From a virus (Duplodnaviria; Caudoviricetes), in the IMG/VR virus record IMGVR_UViG_3300009095_000065, positions 1 through 25,201 of that record: DNA of 25,201 bases, one strand, 5' to 3'. Below, piece by piece: positions 20,581 through 25,201 of this stretch. The position numbers and the translations under genes were made by a program. Each line of letters begins with the position of its first letter. Position 1 is the stretch's first letter. The notes below the pieces were generated by a model. The model ran no database searches. It saw only the letters and a program-made list of their open reading frames with translations, and was not told the origin of the DNA.

Positions 20581-21900
20581 ATGGCTAATCTTGAAGAACG
20601 TAAAAAACATATTCAAGAGCTTATCGATAAAGCAGAAGATGCTATCGAAAAGGGCGATCTTGAAGCAGCAAGACAGTTAAAAAGTGATATTGAGTCACAA
20701 AAGAAAGAGTACGAAGAATTATCAGCTTTAAAAGAAGAAGTAGCAAGCCACAAACCAGCAGAACCTGAAACGGAGGCTGAGGAAGTGGACGAGGAAGTTG
20801 ATAACGAAGAGGATGCAGTAAAGGAAGAGGAAAAGCCTGAAGCTGATGAACCTAAGTTAAACGAACCTCAAAAAGAAACAGAAGAAGAACAAGAAGTCGC
20901 AATTCAAGAAGAGGGCGAAGATGCAGTTGTAAACGCTGAAAAACTTGAAGATGACGAAGAAGAAAAGAAAAAGAAAAAGGGAGCGAAACGAGATATGGCG
21001 AAAATTTTAAATAACGAAGTAGAAACAAACGAGAGAGTAGAAGGTTTTGCCGATTTTATTAAAACGAAAGGTGCTAAGCGTGACAACGTTATATCAGATG
21101 ATGTTGGTGTAACGATTCCAGAAGATATTAAATATGCACCAGAGAAAGAAGTAAACACAGTACAAGACTTATCACAATATGTAACTAAAACATCAGTTAA
21201 AACAGCATCAGGTAAGCATCCTATCTTGAAACGTGCTACTGCTAAATTCAATACAGTTGAAGAATTAGAGCAAAACCCAGAACTTGCTAAACCTGAATTC
21301 GAGACAGTAAGTTGGGAAGTAAACACTTATTGTGGTGCTATTCCAGTATCAGAAGAATCAATCGCAGACAGTGCTATTAATTTAACTGCTTTAATTGCTG
21401 AAAACATTCAAGAACAAAAAGTAAATACTCTAAATGAAAAAATTGGTAACGTTTTAAAATCATTTACTGCTAAAGAAGTATCTGACGTAGACGAATTAAA
21501 ACATATCATCAACGTTGATTTAGACCCTGGATATGACCGTCAAATCGTATGTACTCAATCATTCTATCAAGCATTAGACACTATCAAAGATAGTAACGGT
21601 CGTTACTACTTAAATGATTCAATCATTAACACGTCTGGACTTAAATTACTAGGCATGAACGTAACGGTAGTACGTGATGACTTATTAGGTGAAAACGGAG
21701 ATGCTAAAGCATTCGTTGGAGATTTAAAACGTGGTGTATTCTTCGCTGACCGTTCAGACCTTTCTGTAACTTGGCAAGACCACAACATCTACGGTCGTTT
21801 CTTAATGGGTGCGTTCCGTTTCGATGTTAAGCAAGCAGACGAAAATGCAGGTTACTTCATCACTTTCAATAATGACGCAGAAGAACCAGATACTCCCTAA
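20581..21900 (+). CDS. HK97-fold major capsid protein with N-terminal scaffold/delta domain
   Basis: Coiled-coil and acidic N-terminus; G.TIPEDI, IKDSNGRYYL, AFVGDL, RFDVKQAD. Confidence 0.95.
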   Translation: MANLEERKKHIQELIDKAEDAIEKGDLEAARQLKSDIESQKKEYEELSALKEEVASHKPAEPETEAEEVDEEVDNEEDAVKEEEKPEADEPKLNEPQKETEEEQEVAIQEEGEDAVVNAEKLEDDEEEKKKKKGAKRDMAKILNNEVETNERVEGFADFIKTKGAKRDNVISDDVGVTIPEDIKYAPEKEVNTVQDLSQYVTKTSVKTASGKHPILKRATAKFNTVEELEQNPELAKPEFETVSWEVNTYCGAIPVSEESIADSAINLTALIAENIQEQKVNTLNEKIGNVLKSFTAKEVSDVDELKHIINVDLDPGYDRQIVCTQSFYQALDTIKDSNGRYYLNDSIINTSGLKLLGMNVTVVRDDLLGENGDAKAFVGDLKRGVFFADRSDLSVTWQDHNIYGRFLMGAFRFDVKQADENAGYFITFNNDAEEPDTP

Positions 21901-21961
21901 GCCACCCCGAAACGTTGAGGTAACAGCTAATGCTAAATCTGTTGTTATCTCTGCGGAATAG
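21896..21961 (+). CDS. Predicted +1 frameshift extension of capsid: KPPRNVEVTANAKSVVISAE
   Basis: CCC-TAA shifty stop; the +1 frame CCT AAG ... GAA TAG is open for 20 added codons and is homologous to the tail extension. Confidence 0.75.
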   Translation, partial: PKPPRNVEVTANAKSVVISAE

Positions 21962-21972
21962 GGGGGTATTCA

Positions 21973-22317
21973 ATGTTTAAACTAGATGACATTGAATCAA
22001 TCAAACGTGCAATTAGAGTTGACCATAACTTAGATGATGATTTAATTCTAAATGTGTATCTACCTGCTGCACAACGACAAATTAAGACAGCTATAACATT
22101 AGATGAAAAGGATGACAGTTTCTTTGAAAGTAATTCAGTCTATAACTTAGCTGTTTTAAATACGTTGGCTCATCACTATGACAATCGTTCGTCTACAACT
22201 GATACACCTAAGCAAGAAGTACCTTTATCATCATTAACGTTAATCCAAGCGTTACGTGGTGATTTAGAGAAATGGCGTGCAGAGAATGTGGAGGTTGATA
22301 CTGATGGACTTGAATAA
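21973..22317 (+). CDS. Head-tail connector (gp6/gp15-like)
   Basis: IKRAIRVDH..DDDLI, LAVL...HHYDNRS. Confidence 0.88.
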   Translation: MFKLDDIESIKRAIRVDHNLDDDLILNVYLPAAQRQIKTAITLDEKDDSFFESNSVYNLAVLNTLAHHYDNRSSTTDTPKQEVPLSSLTLIQALRGDLEKWRAENVEVDTDGLE

Positions 22318-22633
22318 TCTTAATTGGTATATCGAGTTTTTAGAAGTAAAGCCTACAGGTCCAGAAGCAGGAATGAACGGAGAAGTTAAAGTTTATTCTT
22401 GCTTTGCCGACTTGTACGAGCCAACACAAAAAGATGTGCAGCTAGGTAATTTAGAAACAACTAACAATTCAGTAACAATTAAAATTCGAAATGCTCATCC
22501 ACAATTTACGCCGAGTGTTAGCCAAGTTTTCGTTGTTAAAAATGGTATATACAAAGATATGAAATTTAATATCAAAAATGTAGCGCCATCTAAAACACCT
22601 GACTATTTAAAAGTAGTAGGTGAGGAACAATGA
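22277..22633 (+). CDS. Head closure / head-tail adaptor
   Basis: Position and beta-rich size class; start probably 22304. Confidence 0.7.
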   Translation: MQRMWRLILMDLNNLNWYIEFLEVKPTGPEAGMNGEVKVYSCFADLYEPTQKDVQLGNLETTNNSVTIKIRNAHPQFTPSVSQVFVVKNGIYKDMKFNIKNVAPSKTPDYLKVVGEEQ

Positions 22634-23034
22634 GTGTAAAAGTAAATGGGAATAAAGAAATACTGGCTTATATTGAAAAGAAGTATGGCACTGCTGGTAG
22701 AAAGAAGATGGAATCAGCAGCTATCACTAAAGGTGGTAATGTACTTGAAAACAATATGAAAGATGCGTTTTATCCATATAGAGATACTGGTTATACAGTG
22801 TCGGATATGAACCTATATGGACCAAACAAAAAGACGGGTTCTAATAGAGCTAAATTAAACTGGCAAGGTCCTCATCAACGTTATAAACTTATGCACTTAA
22901 ACGAATATGGCCACTTTATGCGTAATGGTAAATTTTTAAGCCCACGTCAAACTGGACTAATAGAAAATACTACAAGAGCATCGAGAGACAGTTACAGAAA
23001 AGCTATCAAAGAAGAACTAGAAAAGAGGGTGTAG
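22630..23034 (+). CDS. HK97 gp10-like neck protein
   Basis: RDTG...HLNEYGH motif. Confidence 0.75.
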   Translation: MSVKVNGNKEILAYIEKKYGTAGRKKMESAAITKGGNVLENNMKDAFYPYRDTGYTVSDMNLYGPNKKTGSNRAKLNWQGPHQRYKLMHLNEYGHFMRNGKFLSPRQTGLIENTTRASRDSYRKAIKEELEKRV

Positions 23035-23036
23035 CG

Positions 23037-23441
23037 ATGGAAGATATGACAATCAAAATTTATGAAGCGATTAAAAATAATAAAGAATTTATGAGTCATG
23101 TTAACGAAAGTGATATAAAATTCTTTGATTATCCAAACGCACAAGAAATAAAAAACATAGCTGTTGTTATTGATCCATTAGATACACCTAAACCTCGAAA
23201 CTTTGGCGATAACGATAACTTAATGTACGAATATCTATATCAAATAGATGTATTTGTAAAACAAAAGAATGGCGTAAACGGACGAGTCCTATCAGATAGG
23301 CTCGTTTTTTTATTGCAAAGAATTATGTGGGAGGAATTGGGGTTCGGTGAAACGTCCTCAATGAAACCTGAATATATCAAAGATTTCAATTTATACCGAC
23401 AAGCTAAAAGGTTTGAAGGAAAACAATATTACAAAATTTAG
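23037..23441 (+). CDS. Tail terminator / completion protein
   Basis: YQIDVF motif; position before the tail tube gene. Confidence 0.7.
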   Translation: MEDMTIKIYEAIKNNKEFMSHVNESDIKFFDYPNAQEIKNIAVVIDPLDTPKPRNFGDNDNLMYEYLYQIDVFVKQKNGVNGRVLSDRLVFLLQRIMWEELGFGETSSMKPEYIKDFNLYRQAKRFEGKQYYKI

Positions 23442-23453
23442 GAGTGTTTATAT

Positions 23454-24053
23454 ATGGCAGAGAAAAATTACCGTTCATTCACAGGTTTAACAGAATTTTA
23501 TTACAAAGTGCATGGTGGAGAAGTACAAGCAGTAACAGACCCAGAACGTATCAAGTATTTACAAAGTATTTCAGTATCAAAAGACCAATCAATCGAGAAA
23601 GCATACGGAGATAACGTAGTAGCTGAAATGGCAGTAGCTAACGGTACAATCGAAGTAGAGGCTGGATTCCACAAACTACCTTTAGAGGACAGAGTGGCTT
23701 TATTTGGCTTAGAAAAATCAGAAGATGGTATTGTATCAGTTGGTAACGATACGCCTCCATACGTAGCTGTTATGTTCGCTAAAACTATGGAAGATGGTTC
23801 ACGTGAATATGTTGGGTTGCCTAAAGGGTTATTCACATTCCCAGAACTTGAAGGCAACACTAAAGAAGATGGCGTTGAATTTAGTTCAGACTCAACTACT
23901 GCAGAATTTATGCAAGCTGAGGTTAAAGGCTTTGAAGAAGAAAAAACAATGTTACTTGGTCACGATGAAAAAGGCGCTACAGTTATGAAAGATGCAATCT
24001 GGGAAGCAGTATTTGGAAAAAGTACAGAAGATGAAGAACCAGATACTCCCTAA
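23454..24053 (+). CDS. Major tail (tube) protein, phi13-like family
   Basis: KAYGDN, PPYVAVMF, GLPKGLF, TKEDGVEFS. Confidence 0.9.
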   Translation: MAEKNYRSFTGLTEFYYKVHGGEVQAVTDPERIKYLQSISVSKDQSIEKAYGDNVVAEMAVANGTIEVEAGFHKLPLEDRVALFGLEKSEDGIVSVGNDTPPYVAVMFAKTMEDGSREYVGLPKGLFTFPELEGNTKEDGVEFSSDSTTAEFMQAEVKGFEEEKTMLLGHDEKGATVMKDAIWEAVFGKSTEDEEPDTP

Positions 24054-24114
24054 GACACCCCAAAATGTAGTGGTGGATCCTGATGCTAATTCGGTATCTA
24101 TTACTGCAGAATAG
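24049..24114 (+). CDS. Predicted +1 frameshift extension of tail tube: KTPQNVVVDPDANSVSITAE
   Basis: Same CCC-TAA cassette as the capsid; 20 added codons ending GAA TAG. Confidence 0.75.
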   Translation, partial: PKTPQNVVVDPDANSVSITAE

Positions 24115-24128
24115 GGGCGCTCATTAAA

Positions 24129-24173
24129 TTATCAAATTATAGCTTATCAAATTATAGATTATTAAATTATAAA
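24129..24173. repeat. Three 15-bp tandem repeats
   Basis: TTATCAAATTATAGC TTATCAAATTATAGA TTATTAAATTATAAA, running into RBS AAAGGAG. Confidence 0.7.
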
Positions 24174-24185
24174 GGAGTAAATATA

Positions 24186-25201
24186 ATGACTGACATATTA
24201 AAAGTATACAAAGGCGATGACGTGGTAGATACTGCAGAACGTGGAGAAAATGGTAAAGCGAAAGTAACAATTGATGGATTAGACGCTAACACTGATTACC
24301 CTACTGGCACTTACCAAGTGTCATTTGAAAATGAAAATGGTGAGTCAGAAAAAGTAGACGTACCATCATTCAAAACAAAACCAATTTCAGTTACAGGCGT
24401 AACTTTATCTAAAGAAAGTTTAACACTTGAACCAGGTGCTAAAGGTTCTATACAAGCAACTGTGCAACCAAGTAACGCTACTAATAAAGGCGTGACGTTC
24501 ACATCAAGCGATGAAGCAGTTGCAACAGTAGACAATAAAGGTGAAATCACTGCTAAAACTGAAGGTAGTGCAGATATCACAGTAACAACTGTAGATGGTG
24601 GCAAAACAGCTAAATGTGAATTAACTGTTGAAAAAGCAGTAGTTAATGTAACTGGCGTAAAGTTAGATAAATCTACTTTATCATTAGAGGAAGGTGCTAC
24701 AGGCAATTTAGTTGCAACAGTTGAACCATCAACTGCTACAGATAAGACAGTTACGTTTGCATCATCTGATGCAGAAGTAGCTACAGTTGATAATAAGGGT
24801 AAAGTAACAGCAGTTAAACCTGGGTCTGCTGACATTACGGTTACAACTAAAGATGGTGGCAAAACAGCTAAATGTGAATTAACAGTAACAGCTAAACAAA
24901 TACCAGTTACTGGTGTGACAATCGCACCTAAGACTGCAAGCGTTGATGTAGATGCAACAACTAAATTAAATAGTACGGTTGCACCATCAACTGCTACAAA
25001 CAAATCAGTATCATATAAAAGCTCTGATGAAGCAGTCGCTACAGTATCAAGTAATGGAACAGTAACAGGAGTTGCAGCAGGAGAAGCAACAATCACTGTA
25101 ACGACTAAGGACGGAAGCAAAACAGATACTTCTATAATCACAGTAACTGAACCAGTAACTGAGCCGGAAAACGTACAAGTTGAAACAACACAAGATAGTG
25201 C
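24186..25201 (+). CDS. Ig-domain virion decoration protein: partial FN3-like N-domain, three Big_2 domains, C-terminal tag (3' truncated; not in ORF track)
   Basis: RBS AAAGGAG; MTDILKVYKGDDVV... is open to the window end; three VTGV...V.PS.AT.K.V.(F/Y).SSD..VATV...G repeats. Confidence 0.9.
   Translation, partial: MTDILKVYKGDDVVDTAERGENGKAKVTIDGLDANTDYPTGTYQVSFENENGESEKVDVPSFKTKPISVTGVTLSKESLTLEPGAKGSIQATVQPSNATNKGVTFTSSDEAVATVDNKGEITAKTEGSADITVTTVDGGKTAKCELTVEKAVVNVTGVKLDKSTLSLEEGATGNLVATVEPSTATDKTVTFASSDAEVATVDNKGKVTAVKPGSADITVTTKDGGKTAKCELTVTAKQIPVTGVTIAPKTASVDVDATTKLNSTVAPSTATNKSVSYKSSDEAVATVSSNGTVTGVAAGEATITVTTKDGSKTDTSIITVTEPVTEPENVQVETTQDS

Follow-up and report, generated by a model that had tools for sequence, protein, structure and literature searches.

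A predicted split FN3 domain joining frameshift-encoded tags on the capsid and tail tube of a siphophage to a separate Ig-like protein

The stretch of 25,201 nucleotides (nt) analysed here (IMG/VR virus record IMGVR_UViG_3300009095_000065, positions 1 to 25,201; hereafter the window) is a fragment of a temperate siphophage of staphylococcal type in which the genes of the major capsid protein and of the tail tube protein are both followed, in the +1 frame, by 20 codons for a short C-terminal extension (the tags), and a gene starting at position 24186 codes for an immunoglobulin (Ig)-like protein that opens with an FN3-like partial domain (the acceptor domain). We consider it probable that this Ig protein docks on the frameshift-made tags by completing a split FN3 domain. 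In the mechanism proposed, some of the capsid and tail-tube subunits would receive a 20-residue beta-hairpin tag through a +1 ribosomal slip at CCC-UAA. The Ig protein, encoded by a gene of its own, would dock on either tag, a docking that is predicted because its N-terminal domain matches an FN3 sandwich minus the first two strands. In this way both head and tail would come to carry the Big_2 domains of the Ig protein, which would probably serve to adhere weakly to the host surface, and the frameshift rate would set their density. A first-pass annotation of the window had already placed strands A and B on the virion subunits and strands C-G on the Ig protein, and this split is supported by structural alignment, complex prediction, co-occurrence in relatives and the existence of one-chain proteins; a covarying RNA hairpin, a tag on the acceptor protein itself and a second cassette are added here. 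The coordinates are collected in Table 1.

Slip sites, tags and RNA hairpins

The two 20-amino acid (aa) extensions described in the first-pass annotation are present after CCC TAA, reading KPPRNVEVTANAKSVVISAE behind the capsid gene and KTPQNVVVDPDANSVSITAE behind the tail tube gene; they are homologous, and both +1 frames end in TAG. CCC accounts for 3 of the 5493 codons in the 28 plus-strand open reading frames (ORFs) of at least 80 aa, and only the capsid and tail-tube genes have it as their final codon (2/28). An assembly slip is ruled out, because contigs from other studies span both sites with 0 indels (records 14 and 18 of set X3, with 0 differences, and record 9 of set X2); set X1, a possible source of the window, does not count towards this. 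When 35 distinct frameshift-type tag DNAs were compared, the synonymous share of single-base codon differences was 65% in the +1 frame vs. 16% and 9% in the other frames, in-frame stops were present in 0/35 tags in the tag frame and in 34/35 and 35/35 in the other two, and the third codon position varied most (1.06 bits vs. 0.51 and 0.41), bearing in mind that these sequences are interrelated and the counts are not independent events. Judged by these sequences, the tags are under protein-level selection.

The slip site takes several forms among relatives (CCC TAG, CCC TGA, CCC AGC TAA, and CCC TCA or TCG followed by a stop), and one tag type was found on non-orthologous capsids of 341, 374, 382, 387, 407, and 439 aa. 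One further contig, from set X4, matches the capsid tag DNA (window 21883-21973) but differs in the capsid upstream and the gene downstream, as if the tag were a mobile module. The parallel with Bacillus phage SPP1 drawn in the first-pass annotation holds for the recoding signal: there, a +1 shift at an identical CCCUAA hexamer ending the tail tube gene, likewise a rare CCC codon plus stop, produces gp17.1* with an FN3-like extension, at a 3:1 ratio in tails (PMC6316719; published sources are cited throughout from the passages available). The product differs, as SPP1 appends a whole domain of 87 residues in one chain and on the tail only, while here 20 residues are added to two proteins and the acceptor is separate. 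From the sequence, a +1 slip at CCC-UAA tagging part of the capsid and tail-tube subunits is likely.

A long RNA hairpin is predicted over each tag, with a conserved base that begins 4 nt past the stop and a CCCC:GGGG pairing that is formed in 45 of 46 segments. In the alignment of the 35 sequences, from which the structure was also derived, 8 of 17 pairs were altered on both sides and 94.5% of the cells were paired, compared to 39-55% in slid controls. Relative to synonymous recoding, the median folding z was -3.8 for the 35 frameshift tags and +1.1 for four in-frame tags (range -0.3 to +1.5), and the hairpin was missing from 4/4 in-frame tags; the low z being confined to frameshift tags, the hairpin tracks the frameshift and not the peptide, and we infer that it stimulates slippage. 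An Rfam scan of window positions 21800-24250 returned 0 matches.

The strength of this tag-covering hairpin, the near-invariance of its base and the double-sided changes could also mean that conservation acts on the RNA (through processing, stability or translational coupling) and that the peptide is a by-product or never produced, the more so as the basal G-run of the capsid hairpin shares bases with the likely ribosome binding site of the gene at 21973. We regard this as very unlikely, because the open frame and the synonymous bias are restricted to the +1 frame, the same peptide occurs in-frame without the hairpin in 4/4 in-frame tags, and a virion mass of 25,208 Da in relatives fits the tagged product (see below).

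Table 1. Predicted features of the tag and acceptor system in the window
Feature	Position	Strand	Evidence
Major capsid protein gene, 439 aa, ends CCC TAA	20581..21900	+	PF05065, phrog_10, sequence
Predicted +1 slip site CCC-TAA, capsid gene	21895..21900	+	Identical to SPP1 gene 17.1 hexamer (PMC6316719, passages available); CCC rarity
Capsid tag, 20 codons + stop, +1 frame; predicted FN3 strands A-B	21899..21961	+	Sequence, coding selection, complex prediction
Predicted RNA hairpin over capsid tag	21901..21967	+	-31.7 kcal/mol, z -4.8; covariation
Tail tube protein gene, 199 aa, ends CCC TAA	23454..24053	+	PF04630, phrog_88
Predicted +1 slip site CCC-TAA, tail tube gene	24048..24053	+	Sequence
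Tail tag, 20 codons + stop, +1 frame	24052..24114	+	Sequence, coding selection
Predicted RNA hairpin over tail tag	24054..24122	+	-29.2 kcal/mol, z -4.2; covariation
Acceptor ('catcher') domain, residues 1-66, FN3-like strands C-G	24186..24383	+	phrog_341/4178; AlphaFold 2 pLDDT 89; aligned to FN3tt 31-92, BppA 227-285
Three Big_2 Ig-like domains (cargo), boundaries approximate	24384..25151	+	PF02368, 3 stretches, E 5e-60
Start of the acceptor's own in-frame C-terminal tag, cut by window end	25161..25201	+	Tag hidden Markov model, 14 bits

The acceptor domain and its predicted complex with the tag

The opening segment of about 65 aa noted earlier in gene 24186 could be confirmed as a domain of 66 aa, followed by three Big_2 domains. 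The acceptor matches 544 phage records; the domain is N-terminal in 120/120 longer homologs, and the number of Big_2 repeats per homolog ranges from 0 to 3. One X3 contig skips 258 nt, equal to one Big_2 repeat (window 24592-24851), through repeat variation or assembly. An AlphaFold 2 (AF2) model of the acceptor was aligned structurally (Z 5-7) to residues 31-92 of the 92 of FN3tt, 28-90 of Tencon, and 588-644 of a chitinase FN3 domain. Since the alignments to single FN3 domains start around residue 28-39, the acceptor is without the first ~30 residues of FN3, and strands C-G match many FN3 domains with Z 5.2-5.8, which, lying below 8, is a fold-level likeness only. The top structural match was domain 2 of BppA from Lactococcus phage Tuc2009 (residues 227-285; Z 7.2, root mean square deviation 2.5, 59 aligned residues, 30% identity), and the profile alignment of acceptor and BppA reached an hhalign probability of 90.8. 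The FN3 motif L-x-x-x-T-x-Y is present as L32, T36, and Y38, which are invariant in 26 aligned acceptor sequences. The FN3 family model PF00041 did not match the acceptor at E 0.1, its Pfam cut-off being missed by what is a partial domain (the acceptor gp114 of phage K scores 13.5 bits against a cut-off of 25), and a PDB sequence search for a solved homolog returned none, with weak fibronectin rows only (E 0.05-0.6).

A complex prediction of tag and acceptor N-domain, proposed as a check in the first-pass annotation, gave predicted binding: acceptor residues 1-67 and the capsid tag scored 0.88, vs. 0.02 for the best of 3 controls, the mark applied being reached by 116/157 solved and 2/215 mismatched pairs (rates that are only approximate with the alignments used here). 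The runs agreed in at least 98% of the contacts and the partner pLDDT (predicted local distance difference test) was at least 81. The best predicted contacts run antiparallel between acceptor residues 25-29 and tag residues 29-25, and the interface comprises tag residues 7-30 with acceptor residues 23-35 and 45-67. The tag entered as a 30-mer, of which the first 9 residues are absent from the real product, and it was the capsid tag that was modelled, the tail tag being present only as an alignment row. Split domain halves tend to pass such predictions via likeness to solved folds, and the pass obtained here may reflect likeness to solved FN3 structures and to PDB 5E7T.

Single chains in which tag-like stretches are followed by acceptor-like ones were recognised by eye (P0135, P0136, P0140, P0147, P0166), and weak fn3 matches below the cut-off occur in two long proteins of this kind. 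The same five proteins are tandem whole FN3-like repeats that open, by eye, with an acceptor-like partial domain unscored by the hidden Markov model (HMM). In mycobacteriophage Bxb1, a tail-tip chain (PDB 9d93 chain S) opens with a domain matching the acceptor (residues 4-72, Z 6.8), which may be a split junction.

The acceptor's own C-terminal tag, incomplete in the window, is complete in homologs, for example P0075, P0092, and P0109. Acceptor plus tag alone make up natural proteins of 89-92 aa (P0125, P0127, P0129, P0139, P0190), a layout as expected of a head-to-tail polymer, and self-tagged acceptors may thus form chains. The same proteins, together with the tagged acceptor of the window, could also suggest that the acceptor draws on its own tag for completion (by circular permutation or as a dimer), that it gets onto the virion in some different way and that the virion tags have another use. 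This is highly improbable in our estimate, given that the HMM finds a C-terminal tag in only 13/120 longer homologs (a few more by eye), that a tagless Ig protein of S. aureus phages is still a virion peak (PMC5923470, passages available), and that the tag stands as a separate hairpin in the AF2 model of P0127, in which the acceptor's pairing strand is without strand assignment. Across tandem FN3 domains, the P0127 model could not be aligned convincingly.

Co-occurrence in relatives and virion masses

The co-occurrence of tags and acceptor, another check put forward at first pass, was examined in a fair sample of 80 loci picked on tail-tube homology alone: 12 had the acceptor and both tags, 68 had neither (12 of these without a capsid gene in range), and 0 were discordant. 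The tail tube of the window is 94% identical to one from an acceptor-less locus. Among 65 loci selected by the acceptor, of which 52 are near-identical S. aureus prophages (locus L066, with a Big_2 match only, was excluded), the tail tag was found in 65/65 and the capsid tag in 61/65, the 4 misses having just 0.6-2.2 kb upstream. The capsid and tail genes of Triavirus also carry +1 tags.

For Triavirus virions, shared mass peaks of 15,871, 23,295, 25,208, and 30,373 are reported, of which the first two alone were assigned, with tail-tube errors of -5 to +3 Da (PMC5923470). The 15,871 Da peak is the Ig protein. In S. aureus phage 47, the calculated masses are 23,295 Da for the tail tube minus Met and 25,205 Da for the +1 product at CCC, so the 25,208 Da peak fits the +1-tagged tail tube, as a mass agreement in a relative and not as an identification. 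Other shift registers of phage 47 did not fit this peak (+1, 25,221-25,324; -1, 24,119-24,210), and no other ORF start came within 25 Da of it in the loci searched (9.2 and 12 kb), a search that took in neither host proteins and fragments nor genes elsewhere in those genomes. The 30,373 Da peak fits the mature phage 47 capsid from L114 (30,375 calculated).

The mass evidence for tagging concerns the tail form only, and the Kayvirus protein TmpH was located on tails by immunogold (PMC8236893), though the tag there is in-frame and on a separate protein; it could thus be argued that only the tail tag works as an anchor, that the capsid tag is rare or unused, and that the Ig protein sits on the tail only. 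We consider this unlikely, as unrelated capsids retain the tag together with its slip site and hairpin in 12/12 positive and 61/65 acceptor-selected loci, the capsid tag was the one placed in the predicted complex, and virions of phage phiEf11 show two capsid bands, explained in print by a proposed -1 extension of 21 aa (PMC5221750). By eye, this proposed extension and the in-frame end of the phiEf11 tail tube are tag-like, and they lie upstream of an acceptor gene.

Several observations weigh against docking through a split FN3 domain. The co-occurrence is partly dependent, since contigs behind 4 of the 12 positives had gone into the tag HMM and a quick tree gives 7 changes (shuffled mean 11.2), of which the starred branches force only 1. 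All structural Z-scores of the acceptor are below 8, and Foldseek with the acceptor model gave no match at E 0.001, though FN3 domains fill the match list (anastellin, 1q38, is in row 5, E 0.22). The alignment of the tag with BppU, the BppA partner, is weak (hhalign probability 11.5), and the staphylococcal tag HMM scores neither the BppU tag nor the phiEf11 tags. The tagged mature capsid of phage 47 (32,310 Da calculated) is missing from the shared Triavirus peaks listed in the passages available. For phiEf11, according to the passages available, no peptide of the extension was recovered, the frameshift is labelled speculative by the authors themselves, and none of the six bands analysed was the acceptor (PMC5221750).

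Relation to known systems and a possible second cassette

The docking mode, which the first-pass annotation had implied to be wholly new, has a solved precedent: in the Tuc2009 baseplate, a C-terminal beta-hairpin of BppU (~25 residues) completes one sheet of a partial BppA domain, and the composite resembles titin 2NZI (PDB 5E7T; PMC4742702). Novelty of the docking was therefore overstated. Both systems place a C-terminal hairpin (here predicted) on a virion protein and pair it with a homologous acceptor domain. The Tuc2009 tag is in-frame, restricted to the baseplate and to one anchor, and its acceptor is C-terminal with carbohydrate-binding cargo, while the window has frameshift-made tags on capsid and tail tube, an N-terminal and self-tagged acceptor, and Big_2 cargo. 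The docking thus resembles BppU-BppA and the recoding resembles SPP1, yet the system belongs to neither, because of its short out-of-frame tags, two major proteins and Big_2 cargo.

A strand-B tryptophan is a further FN3 motif; the tags lack it and end in I-S/T-A-E, with Ala at the position of the Trp in the I-S-W-E of BppU. Incomplete Ig/FN3-type sandwiches are completed in trans in anastellin, in pilus donor-strand complementation and in SpyTag/SpyCatcher; here, two strands would be given by the C-terminus of a virion protein. Paired frameshifts extending both capsid and tail genes are known from the cps and tsh genes of Listeria phages PSA, A118, and A500, with +1 at CCC (PMC5009743). The tag and acceptor HMMs had no match in the head-tail regions of PSA and A118, where the extensions are other sequences.

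The same acceptor domain is found in Triavirus 'major tail protein 2' (phrog_341; 63% identity in phiSLT) and in the TmpH-region genes of Kayvirus (60% in phage K). These proteins are known virion components and are annotated only as tail or Ig proteins, with no attachment mechanism given in the passages available. Phage K holds an in-frame version in adjacent genes (L068:2337-3746), consisting of gp116 plus tag, gp115 with acceptor, Big_2 and tag, and gp114 as acceptor alone. A scan of the whole phage K record with the frameshift-tag alignment had no match and is uninformative, because these two known in-frame tags also escaped it. The system is unmentioned in the available passages of the literature on the phage 812 neck, JS1, NF5, and mycobacteriophage baseplates, and full-text searches, covering neither most subscription papers nor supplements, listed no description of frameshift tags docking a split FN3 domain on head and tail. 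What is new is that the tags would be dosed by frameshifting and sit on the head as well as the tail, the docking mode being known.

If docking on frameshift-made tags is correct, it provides an attachment mechanism for the abundant proteins that go under the misnomer 'major tail proteins' in S. aureus prophages and in Kayviruses of therapeutic use, and it explains both the short frameshift extensions of the phiEf11 type and the 25,208 Da virion mass. Moreover, the Ig cargo could be exchanged without altering structural genes, and a natural 20-residue display handle is offered.

In the acceptor-less loci (L073-L152), the tail tube (65/68) and the capsid (53/56) end in a Gly-Ala C-terminus after an acidic linker, and a gene of ~60 aa lies in the slot of the acceptor in 12 of the 16 such loci listed (e.g., L083:6643-6828). 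Its product belongs to phrog_3673, which is labelled Arc-like repressor in PHROG and matches hypothetical atlas clusters only. Judged by sequence and position, the Gly-Ala terminus and the ~60-aa protein are a possible second pair of tag and decorator. In three loci (L133, L150, L152), the capsid terminus matches that of the tail tube but is of another kind (EPEA, PTA, LPGA), and a 57-67-aa gene follows the capsid instead. As a tentative and rather doubtful generalisation, Gram-positive phages may share a swappable plug-and-socket layer, in which FN3 tags, dosed by frameshifting and placed on both head and tail, would seed head-to-tail chains of self-tagged acceptors, tagless acceptors would cap them, and the unrelated Gly-Ala/60-aa pair would replace them at the same slot, with the capsid and tail termini switching together.

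Taken as a whole, the window contains an integrase gene (64-1113), replication genes, a DNA methylase gene and the head-tail module. Most named homologs of its proteins come from Mammaliicoccus, and the nearest named phage is vB_SauS_IMEP5 (93% identity in the capsid, 96% in the tail tube, and 88% in the acceptor). In the record of this phage, the tail-tube region is present twice (L067:3656-6762), the first copy with a truncated acceptor gene of 83 aa, by duplication or misassembly. The methylase gene (N6/N4 type, PF01555; 17790-18542) is located within the packaging module of the window, between the terminase-like and portal-like genes.

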